Below, piece after piece: positions 15,300 through 45,019 of a stretch of DNA of 64,000 bases. The notes beneath the pieces are model-generated. The model was not told the DNA's origin and ran no database searches. It saw only the letters and a program-made list of their open reading frames with translations. The stretch comes from an uncultured Candidatus Saccharibacteria bacterium (GTDB lineage Bacteria; Patescibacteriota; Minisyncoccia; Phycocordibacterales; Phycocordibacteraceae), in contig CAZJKG010000001.1 in NCBI GenBank assembly GCA_964546795.1, positions 61,690 to 125,689 of the forward strand, in the 5' to 3' direction. The number at the start of each line of letters is the position of its first letter. The stretch's first letter is position 1. Both the position numbers and the translations under genes were made by a program.

Positions 15300-15371
15300 G
15301 GCCCTATCGTCTAACGGTTAGGACACATCCTTCTCAAGGATGGAATCAGAGTTCGATTCTCTGTAGGGTCA
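15300..15371 (+). tRNA. tRNA-Glu (anticodon CTC)
   Basis: Manual cloverleaf: acceptor GGCCCTA/TAGGGTC (one G-U), D arm GTCT-AACGGTTA-GGAC, anticodon arm CATCC-TTCTCAA-GGATG, T arm CAGAG-TTCGATT-CTCTG. No encoded CCA. Confidence 0.75.
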
Positions 15372-17024: not shown

Positions 17025-18778
17025 GGTGTTGTTTGCGATGAATGTGTCGAACTCGTGGTCGCAACACCCCTATCAGGAGGCACTGCGTAATAGTTGATGA
17101 GGAAATGGGTGAGGTCCATAAAAGTTGAAGTCAATGTCTCGGAAGCATACTGGACTCCTTGCGGGTCATTCGTGTAAAGAAGAATTATAAACCGTGGCGC
17201 GTAGGAAGGGAAATAACCGAAGAATGAATGGAAATAGCGGTCATCATAATAGCCGCCCTTCCCATTCGTCAGTTGCGCCGTACCGGTCTTCGCGGCAAAT
17301 GTCATATTCGGCATCCGGACGGAACCATGGCCGAGCGCGTAGTCCGCGACATTCGTCAGCATCGTGCTCACTTCCCGCGTCGCCTCTGGATTGAAGACCT
17401 GCACCCGCCCGCTCCAATCAAGCGGACGCATGACGCCTGTATTGAGCTGTATCGCCTGCACGATATGCGGCTCAACCATCGCGCCGCCGTTGGCGAGCGA
17501 GCCGAGCGCGCGGATCATCTGTATCGGCGAGAGCGCGATACCCTGTCCGAACGCGGCGGTATTATAGTAAATCTGCTGGGGCTTCGAGAGATTATTGATA
17601 AGCGCTCTGCCCTCGTTCGGCAAGTCGATGCCGGTTTTCTCTCCGAACAGAGTCGTGAAATAGGTGCGGAAACGGTCCTGTCCGAGCTGCGTCGCTATCC
17701 ACGATGCCCCGACGTTCAGCGATTGAGACAGAATCTGCTGCATCGGCACTATACCGCGCGCTTTGTGGTCAAAGTTACAAATGCTTGCTTTATTGACCGT
17801 AATACAGCCCGTATCGTCATAGGTTGTGTCGGGAGTGATGACACCCGAATCGAGTCCGGAAGCCATGGTGAGCGGCTTCATGATGGAACCGAATTCGTAG
17901 ACATGCTCCACGAGCGGATTCCCCAACATGCTCGGATTAATGTTCTGTAGATCATTCTCGTCATAGGTCGGATAACTTGCGATTGCGAGAATTGCTCCTG
18001 TGGCGGGGTCCATGATAATTCCGCCTGACTCTTTACTTCCGTAACGCTGATTCAGTTTCGCGATGTCTTCGACGAGCCGTATCTCGACTTCGGGCTCGAT
18101 CGTCGTTACGACATCGCCTTCATGCGCGTCCTTCGCAGAAACGAGCAGGTTGCCGACGTTTGAGAAAAGTTCCGCAAAGAAATTTTTATAGAGCGCATCG
18201 CCCGAGCGCACAAGCGTACCGTTGTAGGACGCCTCAAGTCCGGTCTGTCCGATGAGAGCATCGCCCGAACCATACGAAACGATACCTATCGACTGTGCGG
18301 CAAGCGAAGAACCCGGATAATAGCGCCAACGCTCCTTTAATACTTTTACGCCGGAAATGGAGCGGCTTGCGAGTGATTGTCCGCTTTCCTGCGAAAGACG
18401 ATGTGCGACTTCAATATAGACCTGTCCTTTCTTCGCAGCCGCGGCAAGGAATGCTTCATGGGAAATAACAGCGGATGTGACGGCGGTAATCGCACCATAG
18501 GCGGCCTCAGGGTCGGCAAGTATCTGCGGATTTATCGCGACAAGAAAACCGGTCGCTAGAGTCGCGGCGGAAATAAGAGTACCGTCCTTGCGGGTGAAAT
18601 AAATGGAACCGCGATCAAAGAGTCCGCTTCCGCCTGCAGCGAACTGGCGGTCGGCCTTTTGCGCATAATCGTCTCCATACACGATCTGAACGAAATAAAG
18701 GCGCACGAGGATGAGGAGTGCGGCACAAACGACCAAAGCAAGAACGAGGCGGATGCGTGAGCGGAACTGTGCGCGCAT
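17021..18778 (-). CDS. ftsI: penicillin-binding protein (class B transpeptidase, FtsI-like)
   Basis: N-terminal TM, a PBP dimerisation region, and transpeptidase motifs SIMKP (SxxK) and KTGTA. Between ftsL-like and murF. Confidence 0.8.
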   Translation of the reverse strand: MRAQFRSRIRLVLALVVCAALLILVRLYFVQIVYGDDYAQKADRQFAAGGSGLFDRGSIYFTRKDGTLISAATLATGFLVAINPQILADPEAAYGAITAVTSAVISHEAFLAAAAKKGQVYIEVAHRLSQESGQSLASRSISGVKVLKERWRYYPGSSLAAQSIGIVSYGSGDALIGQTGLEASYNGTLVRSGDALYKNFFAELFSNVGNLLVSAKDAHEGDVVTTIEPEVEIRLVEDIAKLNQRYGSKESGGIIMDPATGAILAIASYPTYDENDLQNINPSMLGNPLVEHVYEFGSIMKPLTMASGLDSGVITPDTTYDDTGCITVNKASICNFDHKARGIVPMQQILSQSLNVGASWIATQLGQDRFRTYFTTLFGEKTGIDLPNEGRALINNLSKPQQIYYNTAAFGQGIALSPIQMIRALGSLANGGAMVEPHIVQAIQLNTGVMRPLDWSGRVQVFNPEATREVSTMLTNVADYALGHGSVRMPNMTFAAKTGTAQLTNGKGGYYDDRYFHSFFGYFPSYAPRFIILLYTNDPQGVQYASETLTSTFMDLTHFLINYYAVPPDRGVATTSSTHSSQTTP

Positions 18779-18789
18779 ATGCCTTTACA

Positions 18790-19077
18790 CTAGCGCAATG
18801 TGGCTACATTCTTCGCCGGTACGAACACTTCGACAAGTGGCTTCGCATAGCCCATCGCGGTGTAATTTGTGCCGGTGATATGCGTCATGGTAGTAATGTA
18901 TTGTTTTTCAAGTATGGCAACCACCGCTTCATCGTTCCTGACCGATTGCGAAAATTCAACCGTAAGCGCCGCATAGCTCATGACCACCGCAATGAGCCCA
19001 ATATAGGAGACCGCAAGAACGGCGACCGTGCCGGAACAAAATGACAGGAGAGAGAATGGGAAATGGGAATTATACAT
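18790..19077 (-). CDS. FtsL-like small bitopic membrane protein
   Basis: 95 aa with one TM helix. Sits between rsmH and ftsI, which is the canonical ftsL position. Confidence 0.4.
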   Translation of the reverse strand: MYNSHFPFSLLSFCSGTVAVLAVSYIGLIAVVMSYAALTVEFSQSVRNDEAVVAILEKQYITTMTHITGTNYTAMGYAKPLVEVFVPAKNVATLR

Positions 19078-38171: not shown

Positions 38172-39578
38172 ATGAAAGAAATCGTGCAAGATGGCACGCC
38201 AGTGTTGCGCGATATCGCATTGCCCGTGCCCGAGGATCTCTTCGGCACCCCGGAGCTCGTGCATCTCATCAAGGACATGGAGGAGGCGCTCGACAAAGAG
38301 ACCGAGGGCGTCGCACTCGCCGCGCCGCAAATAGGAGTGTCGTACCGCGTCTTCATCGTAAGGAAAGACAGAACCCGTCCTTCGCCAAAGGCTACGGAGG
38401 GCACAGCACTTCCCCTACACGCGCCGCGAAGCGGCGCGTCGGGCAAACTTTTAGCGGAGTCGGAAGTTTTAGCCCCCGAAATAGAGGTCTTTATCAATCC
38501 CGAGATTGTAAAGACCTCCCGCAAGCGAGCAAAGACAGACGAAGGATGTCTCTCGGTTCGCGGCGTGTACGGCACGACCAACCGGCACGAACGCGTTACC
38601 ATCCGCGCCCGTCGTCCTGACGGCTCTAAACTAACGCGCGGCGCCGGCGGACTCTTGGCGCAAATATTCGAACATGAAATAGACCATTTGAACGGCATCC
38701 TCTTTATTGACCATGCCGAACATCTCATTCACATAAAGCGTCAATTGGAGCATCGCTTCGCCTATTTCGGTACGCCCCATGTCGCGAGCGATACGCTTGC
38801 CATTCTCATCGAACGCGGGTTTGTACCTTCCGTCGTTGTAACTTCTCCGGACGCGCCGAAAGGTCGGGGTCTTGCTCTTGCACCGTCCGAAACGAAAAAG
38901 CTCGCGCTTGTACACGGTATCCCCGTCATGACTCCGGAAAAATTAGACGCAAATGCAATCGCTGAGATAAATACATTCGCATGCGACTATGCCGTCGTCG
39001 TCGCCTACGGCAAGATATTTCCCGAAGAGCTTATAACCGCATTCCCCCGAGGCGTGGTAAATGTCCATTATTCACTTCTGCCGAAATATCGCGGAGCGAC
39101 ACCGCTTGAGACGGCTCTCCTTTCGGGCGACACGGAGACCGGCGTGACTATACAAGAAATGGTGCGTGAACTTGATGCGGGCGACATCATTGCGCAGAAG
39201 ACCACCGAAATTGCGCTGTTTGAGACCGCGCGCGAGCTGCGAGCGCGACTCATCGATATGGGAGCTTCCCTGCTTGCCGACACTCTCCCCGAATACGCAG
39301 CGGGGCGCATTGAGCCAGTTCCGCAAGACGCCTCCCGCGTCACGCGCACGAGGAAACTCAAAAAAGAAGACGGGCTTCTCTCACTTGATGCTCCTGCCGA
39401 AGTGAACTGGAACAAATACCGCGCATATGCCGACACTATCGGCACCTATTTCTTTGATCCGCCAATCGGCGGAGGTAAGCGAATTAAAATAACGGCGGCC
39501 TCATTTAAAAACGGGGTATTTGTCATCGAGCGCGTCATTCCCGAAGGTAAACGCGAGATGAACTACTCCGCGCGGTAA
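38172..39578 (+). CDS. bifunctional peptide deformylase / methionyl-tRNA formyltransferase fusion (Def-Fmt)
   Basis: The N-terminal half carries PDF motifs G.A.PQIG, EGCLSVRG and HEIDHLNG. The C-terminal half carries Fmt motifs (FGTP, HYSLLPKYRGATP, a C-terminal domain). It is a single uninterrupted 468-codon frame. Confidence 0.8.
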   Translation: MKEIVQDGTPVLRDIALPVPEDLFGTPELVHLIKDMEEALDKETEGVALAAPQIGVSYRVFIVRKDRTRPSPKATEGTALPLHAPRSGASGKLLAESEVLAPEIEVFINPEIVKTSRKRAKTDEGCLSVRGVYGTTNRHERVTIRARRPDGSKLTRGAGGLLAQIFEHEIDHLNGILFIDHAEHLIHIKRQLEHRFAYFGTPHVASDTLAILIERGFVPSVVVTSPDAPKGRGLALAPSETKKLALVHGIPVMTPEKLDANAIAEINTFACDYAVVVAYGKIFPEELITAFPRGVVNVHYSLLPKYRGATPLETALLSGDTETGVTIQEMVRELDAGDIIAQKTTEIALFETARELRARLIDMGASLLADTLPEYAAGRIEPVPQDASRVTRTRKLKKEDGLLSLDAPAEVNWNKYRAYADTIGTYFFDPPIGGGKRIKITAASFKNGVFVIERVIPEGKREMNYSAR

Positions 39579-40031: not shown

Positions 40032-40271
40032 TCAGTTGTTAATACTGATCATCTTAGCGCGTGAACGGTGTCCTGTCAGTATGCGCACCTTTCCGAGGGG
40101 CTTTCCGAATCGCTTGGCCAGTATCTCGCGCACGCGATCATTCGCACGGTTCCCGAGTGCGGGCTCCCTCACTGATATCGCAAGCATCTCGCCTTCTTCC
40201 GCGCCTTTGGCGGGATGAACCTCAATCTTCTCGCGCTTAGCGTCCGGTGTGACAAATACTTTGATATACAT
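40032..40271 (-). CDS. DUF167 (YggU) family protein
   Basis: IKVFVTPDAKREKIE......L.ISV.EPA..GRAN.....ILAK.FG.....V.ILTGHRSR.K matches the YggU pattern. Confidence 0.6.
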   Translation of the reverse strand: MYIKVFVTPDAKREKIEVHPAKGAEEGEMLAISVREPALGNRANDRVREILAKRFGKPLGKVRILTGHRSRAKMISINN

Positions 40272-40360
40272 AATCAGTATCGTAACACCGCGTCGGCACA
40301 TCCATTGCGACATGTGATTTTTCAGTTAGAATGTGGACACGCCCTCTTTACGGGGGTTTA

Positions 40361-40440
40361 AAACATTCCGGGATAGCTCTCCGCCGGCTGGCGGAGGTAG
40401 AGCGGTTACAATCCGGGGTCGAGAGTTCGTTCGTAAACAT
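40361..40440 (+). other. tRNA-like fragment: duplicated 5' portion (acceptor + D-arm start) of the downstream tRNA
   Basis: AAACATTCCGGGATAGCTC recurs as AAACATATTCCGGGATAGCTC at 40435-40455. No matching 3' acceptor strand. Confidence 0.5.
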
Positions 40441-40442
40441 AT

Positions 40443-40735
40443 TCCGGGATAGCTCAATGGTAGAGCAGCGCCCTGTGGCTTACGCAGCTTTTCAGAGGAA
40501 TCTGGATCGAATAACGAGGTGAATTGCTGGAAACCCTTCGTGGGCAATCAGCAGCCAAGTCCCGCCGTCGGCTGGAAAGGTTCAGAGACTATCCCGAAAG
40601 GGAGTACTGTCCCGATGTAAAGTCGGAATGGGAAGCGCCTCGCACCGAGAAACGGTGATGATATAGTCCATCCCTTTTGGAAACTTAAGGAGCGATGTAA
40701 GGCGTTGGTTGCAGGTTCGAGTCCTGCTCCCGGAG
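40443..40735 (+). tRNA. tRNA (anticodon read as GTT, Asn) interrupted by a ~221-nt group I intron in the anticodon loop
   Basis: Exon 1 (40443-40476) and exon 2 (40698-40735) form a clean cloverleaf: acceptor TCCGGGA/TCCCGGA, D arm GCTC-AATGGTA-GAGC, anticodon stem GCGCC/GGCGT, loop CTGT^TAA, T arm GCAGG-TTCGAGT-CCTGC. Confidence 0.7.
40477..40697 (+). ncRNA. group I self-splicing intron
   Basis: 5' exon ends in U and the intron ends in G. Internal CAGCAGCCAAGTCC, GGTTCAGAGACTA and ATGTAAAGTCGGAATGGG resemble conserved P4/P7 core segments of Tetrahymena/cyanobacterial tRNA group I introns. Too short to encode a homing endonuclease. Confidence 0.65.
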
Positions 40736-40969
40736 CTAGAAAAAGTTAGGCCCTGATGCGGACAGCATTGGGGTCTTACTTTTTCTCTCCGCGGACAGGA
40801 CTCGAAAGCGAGCGCGGGTACCAGTCGAGCACGACTGGTCGCGCGAGGCGGCTCGCGAAATACTGGAGCGACGGCGACAGTATTTTGTGAGAGAGATGCG
40901 TACTCGCGATCCTGCTCCCGGAGCAAAATAACCGTAGGTCGGTTCAAGATGGCACTTTAGGGTGCTATT

Positions 40970-41326
40970 TTGCTACAATTGAGAATAATGGAAAACAAAT
41001 ATCAGAGTGAAATAACAGTGCTACTCAAGCAAGTTCGTCCAAGACTTTCCACCACACACCAATTAGAATTCAAAAATGTATTTGGTGCAGTTGGTGGTTA
41101 TATCAACGGGCACATATTTATTTCGTGTGGAAAGTTTGGAGTTGCGCTTCGGCTTCCGCCGGAAACTCTTGACCAACTTTTTCACGAAAAGAAAGCAAAA
41201 CGCCTTAAATATTTTCCCAAAGGACATATCAAAAAAGAGTATGCGGTGCTTTCAAAACAAGTGCTTGAAAATAAACAAAGGCTGAAAAAACTCGTGGATG
41301 AAAGTATTAAATTTGTGGTAAAATGA
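40970..41326 (+). CDS. TfoX N-terminal domain protein (Sxy/TfoX competence-regulator family, N-domain only)
   Basis: FKNVFGAVGGYINGHIFISCGKFGVALRL, then KYFPKGHIKKEYAVL, matching the TfoX_N pattern. Confidence 0.55.
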   Translation: MLQLRIMENKYQSEITVLLKQVRPRLSTTHQLEFKNVFGAVGGYINGHIFISCGKFGVALRLPPETLDQLFHEKKAKRLKYFPKGHIKKEYAVLSKQVLENKQRLKKLVDESIKFVVK

Positions 41327-41366
41327 AAAGGTCGAAAACATAAATTAACAACTAATCAAAAACATT

Positions 41367-42124: not shown

Positions 42125-42376
42125 TCAACGATGAATGCATCCGGCCCAACAACAAGGTCGGCGTATCCCTTCTATAAGTTCCGTACGTGTCCTCTCGATG
42201 CGGTGACTCCTCGTCTCCGGTTTTTTGGCGGACATAATCCAGCAAATCCATTCATTGCGTGCGAGCGGAGTAATATCTTCCCATGCCGCTCGCGCCGTTG
42301 GAGCCGAAATAAAGGTCTTTCGTAAATCCGCTGGCATCCTGTGTACCGCACCAGTAGCGATTCCTTTTTTGGTCAT
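42125..42376 (-). CDS. YdeI/OmpD-associated (OmdA) domain protein
   Basis: PADLRKTFISAPTARAAWEDITPLARNEWICWIMSAKKPETRSHRIERTRTELIEG matches OmdA. Has an extra Cys-rich C-terminal tail. Confidence 0.55.
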   Translation of the reverse strand: MTKKGIATGAVHRMPADLRKTFISAPTARAAWEDITPLARNEWICWIMSAKKPETRSHRIERTRTELIEGIRRPCCWAGCIHR

Positions 42377-42445
42377 AGGATTACTTTATCAAATTCTCTC
42401 GGTCATGGCGGTTCGAACATTCTCTATCTAGCGGGGCCAAACAAT

Positions 42446-42922
42446 TCAATCACCCAGATCAAGCAGCTTCACTGGCTTCATCACGGCTTTGGGGTTTTGT
42501 TTCCATTCGTCCGACACATCTGCATAGAGTTCAAGTTCGTTAGCATCCGGATCAAGTATGTAGATGCTGTGCGTGACAGTATGATTGCCGGTGCCTACGA
42601 TCGTGACACCTTTTTCTTTCAGTTCACGATATGCTTGCTTCGCATCGTCGGTTGAATTGCCTATCTTGAATCCAATATGGTAAAGACCGGGAGTCGGAAA
42701 TCCCCTTTGGATCGGACTTCCACCGACTTCAATGAGCAACAATTCGTGATGGGTTCTCCCGGAAGAAAATAATGCCATCCCTCCATCACGATGAATCTCA
42801 TGAAAACCTAATGTATTACGGTAGAAGTCAGCTGAACGCTTTAGGTTAGAAACATAGAGAACGACATGGCCAAGTTCCTTAATCTGCATGGGATCATTGT
42901 ACCCTTTTACGGGTCCGAACAT
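42446..42922 (-). CDS. VOC (glyoxalase/bleomycin-resistance/dioxygenase) family protein
   Basis: LGHVVLYVSNLKRSADFYRNTLGF ... HIGFKI, matching the VOC beta-alpha-beta-beta-beta modules. Confidence 0.7.
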   Translation of the reverse strand: MFGPVKGYNDPMQIKELGHVVLYVSNLKRSADFYRNTLGFHEIHRDGGMALFSSGRTHHELLLIEVGGSPIQRGFPTPGLYHIGFKIGNSTDDAKQAYRELKEKGVTIVGTGNHTVTHSIYILDPDANELELYADVSDEWKQNPKAVMKPVKLLDLGD

Positions 42923-42956
42923 TCCTTATCCGGCAAAGTAAAGGTTGGTGTAGAAT

Positions 42957-43762: not shown

Positions 43763-45019
43763 TTACGCTGCATATTGCGGACGTTGGCGTCCATATACGA
43801 AAAATAATAAAGCCAAGAGCGCCACGCATGATAAGGTGGCGCCAAACATGAATGGGGCCGCCGGACTCACTTTTTCCCATAATAAGCCGGCAATAATACT
43901 CGCGGGAAGTGCGATGACCCCGAGGGCAGCATTGTAGATGCCATACGCCCGCCCGCGATGATCCGCAGGCACCATGTCCGCCACAAACGCTTTTGCAACC
44001 CCTTCGGTAGTCGCATAATACAGACCGTAGAATGCAAAGAGGATCCATATCTGGTAGCTCGCGCTCGCGAACGCAAATCCTGCGTACGCGAGCGCGTAGG
44101 CGAGCCAGCCGAGCATGATGACTTTTTCTCTCCCGATCCGATCCGACAGAGTCCCGAGCGGCACGGATGCGACCGCATAGACGAAATTGAAAAGCGCGAA
44201 GACAAGCGGAATCGCAAGGAGTGTGACTCCAAGGTTCTGTGCTCTCAAAATAAGGAAAGCGTCAGAGGAATTTCCCAGGCCGAACAGCAACATAATGCCG
44301 AGGAATATATAGAAGGAACGTGGGAGAGCTACTTTCACTCCGGTCTCCATTGCTTTGTTCTGTACAGGACTCTCTTGCACTTTGAACTTCAATATCAGGA
44401 GCGTGATGACAAGAGGTATCGCTGTGATGAGAAGTATGATGTGGTATTTCGCCACACTGTCTTGCAGCAGATAGAGCAACCCGAAGAGTGCGAGCGGGCC
44501 GATGACCGAACCAAACGTATCGAGCATGCGCGCGATGCCGAATCCCCTACCGCGGTTATGTGCCTGCGTAGAATCCGCAATAAGGGCATCCTTGGGAGAA
44601 TCCTTCATTCCCTTTCCGATGCCGTCGAGGAAGCGGAGGCCGAGAATAAGGCCGCTTGATGCAGTAAGGGCAAGCATCGGCCGAGCGATGAGCGAAAAGA
44701 AATAGCCGAGGAATATGAATGGTTTTTTCTTTCCGAGACGATCGACAAAAAAGCCCGAAAGTATTTTAAACACACTCGCCCCGCTTGTGACCAAACCCTC
44801 GGAAATGCCGATGAACACTTTGTCGAAACCCAGTACGTTTGTAAGATAGAGTGGAAGGATAGGGATGAAGATATCTTGGCTGATACCGCCAAAGAAACTC
44901 AAGAGACCAATGTAGAATACGTTCCCCGCTTTTTTCTTTTCCGTAACGTCTTTAATCTCATGCATGCATAAAAGTATAGCTTTTAATATGTACGTATCCA
45001 AAATCCTGCTCCGCCCCAC
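43763..45019 (-). CDS. MFS transporter
   Basis: 12 predicted TM helices, and an MFS loop 2-3 motif (DRLGKKK). Confidence 0.75.
   Translation of the reverse strand: MGRSRILDTYILKAILLCMHEIKDVTEKKKAGNVFYIGLLSFFGGISQDIFIPILPLYLTNVLGFDKVFIGISEGLVTSGASVFKILSGFFVDRLGKKKPFIFLGYFFSLIARPMLALTASSGLILGLRFLDGIGKGMKDSPKDALIADSTQAHNRGRGFGIARMLDTFGSVIGPLALFGLLYLLQDSVAKYHIILLITAIPLVITLLILKFKVQESPVQNKAMETGVKVALPRSFYIFLGIMLLFGLGNSSDAFLILRAQNLGVTLLAIPLVFALFNFVYAVASVPLGTLSDRIGREKVIMLGWLAYALAYAGFAFASASYQIWILFAFYGLYYATTEGVAKAFVADMVPADHRGRAYGIYNAALGVIALPASIIAGLLWEKVSPAAPFMFGATLSCVALLALLFFVYGRQRPQYAA

Follow-up and report, generated by a model that had tools for sequence, protein, structure and literature searches.

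What kind of tRNA gene is interrupted within its own anticodon and bordered on both sides by copies of its own ends, and do the interruption and the copies go back to one event? The question is raised by a tRNA-Asn gene in a 64-kb stretch of a contig from an uncultured metagenome-assembled genome (MAG); this stretch, hereafter the window, is our whole view of the source genome. A first-pass annotation of the window had proposed a tRNA-Asn(GUU) gene split by a group I intron, had connected the flanking repeats with the intron or an integrase, and had placed an accessory gene island behind the downstream repeat. Our analysis indicates that the gene is a functional Patescibacteria tRNA-Asn(GUU) with an endonuclease-free, 221-nt group I intron between anticodon positions 35 and 36, and that the flanking repeats are two separate features, a reading to which we give a probability of about 0.85.

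The split tRNA-Asn gene and its intron

ARAGORN in intron mode called a tRNA-Asn(gtt) that is interrupted after position 35 by 221 nt of intron, i(35,221). The 5' exon (40443..40476, + strand) holds tRNA positions 1-35 and ends in ...CUGU, and the 3' exon (40698..40735, + strand) holds positions 36-73, with discriminator G and without CCA. Joining 40443-40476 to 40698-40735 in silico gave a canonical cloverleaf, namely a 72-nt mature tRNA-Asn(GUU) whose CCA is not encoded. Both the split gene and the insertion between anticodon positions 35 and 36, as first proposed, are therefore confirmed by the intron-mode call and the cloverleaf, and the site also by intron-less relatives. These relatives come from syntenic and related loci (numbered with the prefix L), which were fetched via the flanking def-fmt and DUF1905 proteins plus two DNA patterns. 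The 5' exon is identical or nearly so to the intron-less tRNA-Asn of L005, L011, L004 and L014, and across the junction the spliced product agrees with these genes at 70 of 72 positions (L005, L011) or 68 of 72 (L004, L014). A match of the spliced product to an intron-less tRNA is a validation criterion also used by Nakagawa et al. (mSystems 2026, PMC13011429). The rival parse, a tRNA-Thr(UGU) interrupted at 33/34, is the usual software mis-call; it was rejected since its intron would end in A and since the spliced product fits intron-less tRNA-Asn.

The intron itself (40477..40697, + strand) is 221 nt long and contains no open reading frame (ORF). The Rfam model Intron_gpI (RF00028) matched 40480-40690 (+) with 81.6 bits (gathering threshold 50; E = 3.5e-19), which upholds the initial assignment to group I, and the alignment spans model positions 1-253 of 253, that is, the whole model including the catalytic core P3-P9, located at about 40514-40690. 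The last base of the 5' exon is U (40476) and that of the intron is G (omega-G, 40697), as had been noted, and to these come the two expected pairings with the exons. In P1, exon CUGU (40473-76) pairs with the guide GCAG (40484-87), with U40476.G40484 at the splice site; in P10, UAAG of the 3' exon (40698-701) pairs with CUUA (40479-82).

Of three sequences listed earlier as core elements, AAAGTCGGAATGGG has to be taken out, because it sits in a peripheral insert outside the conserved core. The cmscan alignment places this insert, 42 nt with two extra hairpins, between GAGACUA (P7) and the P3' strand (about 40592-40633); the hairpins are UCCC-GAAA-GGGA and one at about 40610-40633. Subgroup IA has extra elements P7.1/P7.2 between P7 and P3', and by the covariance alignment the two hairpins would fit this architecture. 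Relative to the window intron, the introns of L012 (832-937) and L008 have ~95 extra nt in the same P7-P3' region, a peripheral hot spot for intron length variation.

Introns of this type have been published. Williams (2020, bioRxiv 10.1101/2020.01.27.920355) distinguished 21 types of group I intron in bacterial tRNA genes where there had been 4, and these include "Asn.4Ug" according to Nakagawa et al. (PMC13011429). The latter survey, with a breadth of 4,934 genomes, reports 35/36 group I introns in 15 tRNA-Asn(GUU) and 3 tRNA-Asp genes of 95 complete Patescibacteria genomes, strong enrichment of 35/36 insertions in this phylum, and tRNA-Asn 35/36 as the commonest tRNA-intron type there; it concludes that horizontal transfer is limited. 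It also describes in vitro experiments, with an omega-G-to-C change as negative control, in which the introns of GCA_016700035.1 tRNA-Asn and GCA_001029755.1 tRNA-Asp spliced themselves out precisely, mentions HNH genes inside four tRNA-Asn introns, and states that standard tRNA tools miss such genes or call them Thr(UGU) 33/34. The first-pass description of the site as atypical is outdated: by these two accounts (PMC13011429; bioRxiv 10.1101/2020.01.27.920355), 35/36 in tRNA-Asn is the best-documented Patescibacteria site. A group I intron at this position was novel until recently and has now been published, surveyed and validated.

The window intron was compared with seven tRNA-Asn introns from Table S3 of PMC13011429, including that of GCA_016700035.1. 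It is 80-87% identical to them over the aligned columns, which cover 60-79% of the intron length, and it shares with them the GCAGC guide, the conserved core blocks and the ...TG end. Because of this identity and of the shared guide, core blocks and end, the window intron is, judged by its sequence, a further member of a known intron type that has been validated in vitro.

About half of the syntenic tRNA-Asn loci carry the intron. Besides the window, it is carried by L012 (315 nt), L008/L009 (316 nt; mis-called by ARAGORN as Thr(tgt) i33), L018 (225 nt) and L006 (the same as L013), whose contig stops inside the intron; L001 (the same genome as L010), L005, L004, L011 and L014/L015 are intron-less. 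Identity to the window is 89.6% for the intron and 78% for the flanking genes in L012, 77.6% and about 71% in L008, and 76% and 68% in L018. The patchy distribution looks like vertical descent with losses or like allele replacement, and vertical descent with losses is favoured because intron identity tracks flanking-gene divergence. Recent horizontal spread of the intron was rejected for the same reason.

Two separate features at the two ends

The only promoter-like match in 40200-41050 is TTGCGA-16-TAGAAT (40305..40332, + strand). The TAGAAT box and a leader hairpin also precede tRNA-Asn in L004, L005, L006, L008 (as TAGTAT), L011, L014 and L018, and we read the site as the native tRNA-Asn promoter of the clade. 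It is followed in the window by the native leader hairpin (CGCCCTC...GGGGG; 40340..40357, + strand), which was found by folding and has homologues in L005, L006 and L008; the window leader is 98% identical to that of L005 over 48 nt. In all seven relatives with the box, the hairpin is followed by ...AT|TCCGGG and the full gene.

In the window, the hairpin is followed by a partial copy of the gene start (40361..40379, + strand). The exact repeat reported there earlier is real, with a smaller tRNA part than the interval suggested: only the 13-mer TCCGGGATAGCTC (40367-40379) is tRNA, nt 1-13, and 40361-66 is the leader AAACAT. The sequence ATTCCGGGATAGCTC occurs exactly twice in the 64 kb (40365-79 and 40441-55), and at least two matches were obtained in 0/100 shuffles. 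The repeat is about 19-21 nt long including leader, and the start-to-start spacing between the partial copy and the gene is 76 nt.

Between the fragment and the gene lies segment X (40380..40442, + strand), 63 nt that include GGTTACAATCCGGGGTCGAGAG and end in a second leader-like AAACATAT. X is private to the window genome among the fetched loci, with no BLAST homologue in 22 loci. Two identities for X were rejected: a structured leader, for which the fold signal is absent (z = -0.87), and a piece derived from the tRNA or the intron, for which local alignments were no better than shuffles and the 22 loci gave no homologue. Beyond nt 13, the only resemblance of X to the tRNA is GGTAGAGC, which is not significant (48/500 shuffles). 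The end of the 13-mer and the start of X, AGCTC|TCCGCC...GGCGGAGG, resemble the L004-type leader hairpin AAGCTCTCCGC...GGAGGG. On comparative sequence evidence, the upstream fragment is most likely a lineage-specific recombination scar joined at the microhomology AGCTC. Fragment and X together form a 5' leader of roughly 100 nt for the functional gene, which probably still uses the native promoter, with this leader being removed by RNase P.

The downstream repeat belongs to another element. TCCTGCTCCCGGAGC occurs exactly twice in the 64 kb, at 40722-36 and 40910-24, with at least two matches in 0/100 shuffles, so that the 15-nt copy of the tRNA end originally placed at 40910-40924 exists and is exact. 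The 173 nt between the tRNA and this 15-mer (40737-40909) are here called Y; with the 15-mer, the element measures ~190 nt. L001/L010 and L011, whose tRNA-Asn genes are both intron-less, retain Y and the 15-mer at 76-77% identity, and the divergence of Y equals that of the neighbouring genes in the three genomes. L011 has the same order as the window, tRNA-Asn, Y and 15-mer.

Y begins with a terminator hairpin flanked by A- and T-runs (40738..40786, + strand; terminator-like site 40748-40776 plus T-run). This hairpin is the inner part of a long inverted repeat, in which 40716-40759, comprising the T-loop, 3' end and trailer of the tRNA, pairs with 40765-40806. The outer portion is an inverted copy of the tRNA-Asn 3' end (TTCGAGTCCTGTCCGCGG; 40785..40806, - strand), which extends the hairpin to 40716-40806 (dG = -62 kcal/mol, z = -11.3). 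The three Y-bearing genomes (window, L001/L010 and L011) share one 21-mer of the terminator hairpin without a mismatch, and the stem is largely invariant among them. The body of Y (40807..40909, + strand) is folded by RNAalifold into several hairpins from the three genomes. Y contains 12 compensatory pairs, whereas shuffles gave 4.5+/-1.7 and never as many (0/500) and slid controls gave 0-1, and 91.5% of the cells in the three-sequence alignment pair, compared with about 45% with slid partners. One 8-bp hairpin, for example, reads CCAGTCG/CGACTGG, CCCGTCG/CGACGGG and CCCATTC/GAATGGG in the three genomes.

The direct copy of the tRNA 3' end (40910..40924, + strand) is conserved as TCCTGCTCCCGGAAC in L001 and TCCCACTCCCGGAGC in L011, and in these two genomes it forms the 3' strand of the helix that closes the Y domain. 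The tRNA-end copies co-vary, the inverted one with the T-stem of the tRNA: L011 has CCTAC in the tRNA, GTAGG in the inverted copy and CCCAC in the direct copy. Two pairing partners are open to the inverted segment of Y, the T-arm and acceptor 3' strand of the tRNA itself or the direct copy further downstream. Just past the 15-mer lies a small terminator-like hairpin (40930..40944, - strand). In L008, a tRNA-end-like motif is followed by a AAAATAACCG...CGGTTCA trailer that is like the sequence after the window's 15-mer.

Y is absent after tRNA-Asn in L005, L008, L012, L014/L015 and L018; the downstream side of L006 lies outside its contig, and the DUF1905-anchored contigs L014-L022 hold no further Y. 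Two relatives without the intron keep Y, with compensatory changes, and we therefore conclude that Y is older than the intron state of the locus and independent of it and that the downstream repeat is the end of this old conserved element. The earlier coupling of the repeats to the intron is not supported: intron-less L001/L010 and L011 keep Y and the 15-mer, and the upstream duplication is missing from intron-bearing L006, L012, L008 and L018, the last three of which also lack Y. Among the loci listed, X and Y stand together with the intron only in the window.

What Y might be was narrowed by three rejected identities. As a known RNA it found nothing real: Rfam 15 at E <= 5 gave no family, only sub-threshold hairpins of the microRNA-precursor type (E >= 0.03), and these matches reflect the long inverted repeat. 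As phage or other mobile DNA it was set aside on the absence of its 21-mer from viral contigs. As a multi-copy miniature inverted-repeat transposable element it was set aside on its numbers, a single copy in the window and single matches in the two other Y-bearing genome contigs. Tentatively, and as a possibility that we consider rather unlikely, Y may represent a structured RNA not described so far, or else a module for recombination, that serves tRNA-Asn specifically in one subgroup of the Patescibacteria. If it were true, Y might control 3' processing of the pre-tRNA or read-through, or mimic a tRNA end, and the 15-nt repeat would be kept by selection and would not be left over from integration. 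As a covarying element built on tRNA 3'-end copies and without a match in Rfam, Y could merit a dedicated survey.

Recombination at the locus and rival origins of the repeats

Across the fetched genomes, the tRNA-Asn locus of this clade is a recombination hot spot, with the patchy intron, HNH-like cassettes and a recombinase island in relatives and the nested 5' remnant in the window. In intron-less L004, a large serine recombinase and an MmeI-type restriction-modification enzyme (L004:12302-16830) abut the 3' end of tRNA-Asn, and a gene call of this island overlaps that end; a tRNA-end repeat that could serve as attR was not found in the 21-kb locus. In L001, 12 of the 72 positions of tRNA-Asn are different and the leader is not the native one, and an extra ORF and a tRNA-end-like motif lie between it and Y. 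Directly upstream of tRNA-Asn and on the opposite strand, L012 (231-581, -) and L001 (6079-6432, -) carry an HNH-like zinc-ribbon ORF of 116-117 aa in place of the native promoter and leader. The two ORFs are 85% identical to each other, and the ORF shares 44% identity (E = 1e-20) with the HNH protein translated from the tRNA-Asn intron of GCA_016699425.1; its Pfam HNH scores are below the cut-off (18.7 vs 21.4 bits). It stands next to an intron-bearing gene in L012 and an intron-less gene in L001, and the 64-kb window holds no copy. Because HNH-like cassettes, the rearrangement in L001 and the recombinase in L004 all occur at the same tRNA, a recombination scar in the window is unsurprising.

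The alternative that survives best takes both repeats as att scars: integrative elements would have entered at tRNA-Asn and later been deleted nearly completely, leaving X (63 nt) and Y (173 nt). Pairs of attL and attR are classically recognised by an exact direct repeat of the tRNA 3' end, here 15/15, the upstream repeat reaches about 19-21 nt when the leader is included, and the locus attracts insertions, as the recombinase island in L004 and the cassettes on both sides in L001 illustrate. The Y-less loci L005, L008, L012, L014 and L018 look like empty sites, and in L008 the window-like trailer stands behind another tRNA-end-like motif. Against this, no integrase or recombinase was found in or near the segments: there is none among the ten largest ORFs of 36.2-47.5 kb, and the neighbouring ORFs (YggU, HPF, TfoX_N, DUF1905, cyclase, MFS, TruB and YceG) include no recombinase. 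Y is single-copy, as conserved as the neighbouring genes and changed in ways that preserve its hairpins, unlike a decaying remnant, and it has no match in viral contigs. In L011, the inverted copy fits the tRNA of that genome, whose G-to-A change recurs in the direct copy. Furthermore, tRNA-targeting elements normally regenerate the 3' end of the tRNA and not the 5' end. For the two repeats together we therefore regard this origin as unlikely, if the least so of the alternatives; for the downstream 15-mer taken separately, an old att-type scar is a possible origin.

A local duplication is a more doubtful source. Here the upstream fragment and X would be a decayed tandem duplicate of tRNA-Asn, a pseudo-tRNA, and the 76-nt spacing is indeed about one tRNA length. 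X holds GGTAGAGC, which corresponds to the 3' side of the D-arm, in the correct order after the 13-mer, and GGTTACA in X resembles the variable loop and T-stem start of the L001 tRNA. Beyond nt 13, however, similarity to the tRNA, intron or trailer is not significant (48/500 and 107/500 shuffles), there is no recognisable acceptor 3' strand or T arm, and the Rfam tRNA model is silent there even at E <= 5. An exact 13-mer beside a fully diverged remainder is also hard to reconcile with uniform decay, and we consider this origin improbable. Least probable of all is homing, in which a free-standing HNH enzyme cuts intron-less tRNA-Asn and repair from an intron donor drives the patchiness and sometimes duplications like X: the HNH-like ORF by tRNA-Asn in L001 and L012, the HNH genes in four published introns (PMC13011429) and the presence of the intron in about half of the loci speak for it, but the window lacks such an ORF, the Pfam score falls short, L001 carries the ORF without the intron, intron identity follows flank divergence in a way that vertical descent with losses fits better than recent homing, and the published survey finds horizontal transfer limited (PMC13011429).

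Several observations weigh against our own reading of an intron-bearing functional gene with two separate flanking features. Default ARAGORN misses the tRNA-Asn and reports only a tRNA-Glu (15300-15371) in the window, and the Rfam tRNA model is silent on the split gene, as is expected for this gene type. With a genome view of 64 kb, a second, intron-less tRNA-Asn may exist elsewhere. Guanosine-dependent splicing was seen in vitro for homologues only, and that of the window intron is inferred from its likeness to them. Only three sequences underlie the covariation of Y, and their alignment also served to predict the structure; the window's own Y-closing helix is weaker than in L001 and L011, with about 6 of 9 pairs. 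A donor sequence carrying X was not found in the fetched loci, which leaves the recombination model as an inference, and a direct repeat of 19-21 nt would fit a site-specific integration scar as well.

Taken together, we propose the following course of events for the intron-bearing gene and its two independent neighbours. Y predates the split from the two relatives with intron-less tRNA-Asn. For the upstream scar we envisage a one-sided illegitimate or microhomology join: while the allele was being replaced or a break repaired, an incoming leader and complete gene would have been attached at AGCTC downstream of the resident promoter, leader and initial 13 nt. Transcription would start from the native promoter at 40305-40332, read through the ~100-nt leader with the 13-nt tRNA 5' remnant and the 63 nt of foreign X, and terminate at the hairpin 40748-40786. 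The intron would then fold, with GCAG pairing to exon CUGU in P1 and CUUA to 3'-exon UAAG in P10, and two guanosine-dependent transesterifications would excise it and restore the anticodon loop CUGUUAA. RNase P, 3' processing and CCA addition would complete the tRNA. Predicted in this course are that splicing takes place, where the transcript starts and stops, and where X came from.

Genomic setting and known systems

The genes near tRNA-Asn encode EPSP synthase, a def-fmt fusion, a hibernation factor (HPF) and YggU. The fusion (38172-39578, + strand) is a 468-aa peptide deformylase joined to methionyl-tRNA formyltransferase and has 4944 homologues at E <= 1e-20; the matches listed with a lineage in the source name all belong to Patescibacteria groups (Patescibacteria, Paceibacterota, Kaiserbacteria, Parcubacteria). 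The two related MAG contigs that bear Y are labelled Ca. Saccharibacteria. By these affinities the host belongs to the Patescibacteria, and we take only the phylum as settled. The def-fmt fusion is common among the retrieved Patescibacteria homologues, and L018 has two separate genes.

Downstream, the accessory TfoX/cyclase island proposed to begin at the repeat is not an island, because the region is syntenic with L001 and the differences are simple indels. L001 keeps DUF1905, cyclase, TruB and YceG in the window order at 81-88% nucleotide identity, and its homology with the window runs about 50 nt beyond the 15-mer. The genomes differ by two single genes, TfoX (TfoX_N; about 40975-41356, alternatively 40970-41326) and an MFS gene (43769-44964), and by a block of ~740 nt (42206-42945) with a glyoxalase gene and the end of an OmdA-like ORF. 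None of the far junctions of these three indels carries the tRNA-end repeat. The island was thus rejected despite a fall in GC content at 41-43 kb.

A conserved motif of 25 nt that looks like a T-loop with a 3' end, GGTTCGAACATYCTCTAYCYAGCGG, occurs once per locus in four genomes, in differing contexts (window 42410-42434, L001:6999-7023, L008:5640-5664 and L018:5315-5339). In the window, this motif and a degenerate copy (42912-42930) flank the glyoxalase gene absent from L001; in L001 it stands at the left end of Y, and in L008 it is followed by the AAAATAACCG...CGGTTCA trailer. The 25-nt motif has no Rfam match, and the idea that the GGTTCGAACAT... motif is a known RNA was dropped for this reason. 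The L004 locus also contains an Rfam match to the LOOT RNA (18742-18858).

ARAGORN called "tRNA-Arg(gcg) i(34,193)" near a DUF1905 homologue at L019:4052-4317, L020 and L022:1027-1292. Such a call is described as the usual mis-call of a tRNA-Thr(GGU) with a divergent 36/37 group I intron (PMC13011429). Spurious ORFs of 73-160 aa cross the intron, tRNA and Y (window 40582-40947 (-) and 40326-40547 (-); L008:3441-3923 (-)). The two in the window have no Pfam match, and the public annotation of L008 includes one such ORF. Spurious gene calls of this kind hide such tRNA genes in automated annotation.

How does the locus compare with known systems? It resembles the tRNA att sites of islands and prophages in its exact 15-nt downstream repeat of the tRNA 3' end and in the recombinase island at the same tRNA in L004. 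It differs from them in the shortness of the segment, only 173 nt, in the absence of an integrase, in the conservation of the segment with compensatory changes across three genomes, in the inverted copy of the tRNA end, and in the downstream genes, which form no island. With the free-standing and intron-encoded HNH enzymes of phage collaborative homing it is connected through L001 and L012, which carry a free-standing homologue beside tRNA-Asn; the HNH gene is absent from the window, and this putative endonuclease bears on the history of the locus only.

The classical bacterial tRNA introns are those in cyanobacterial Leu(UAA) at 34/35, in fMet at 33/34, in Azoarcus Ile and in Agrobacterium Arg at 36/37. 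Like these, the window intron is a small group I ribozyme of the anticodon loop, with an exon-guide P1, a P10, an omega-G and a core found by RF00028. The tRNA and the position are different, and so is the subgroup, IC3 for the classical introns and reported as IA for those of the Patescibacteria (PMC13011429).

The closest relatives are the Patescibacteria tRNA-Asn 35/36 introns, which the window intron matches in phylum, tRNA, site, CUGU/GCAG P1 and ...TG end. Its 221 nt fall within the published size range of 184-894 nt, it lacks an endonuclease gene like most published members, and its tRNA is missed by the default tRNA finder in the way described for the type (PMC13011429). It comes from another genome, an uncultured MAG contig, and matches none of the published sequences exactly. 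Compared with the genes as PMC13011429 presents them in the parts that bear on this type, only the window gene is described with a 13-nt copy of its own 5' end upstream and a Y trailer downstream. The locus is mainly another example of this intron type, and it illustrates how tRNA finders at default settings overlook genes of this kind.

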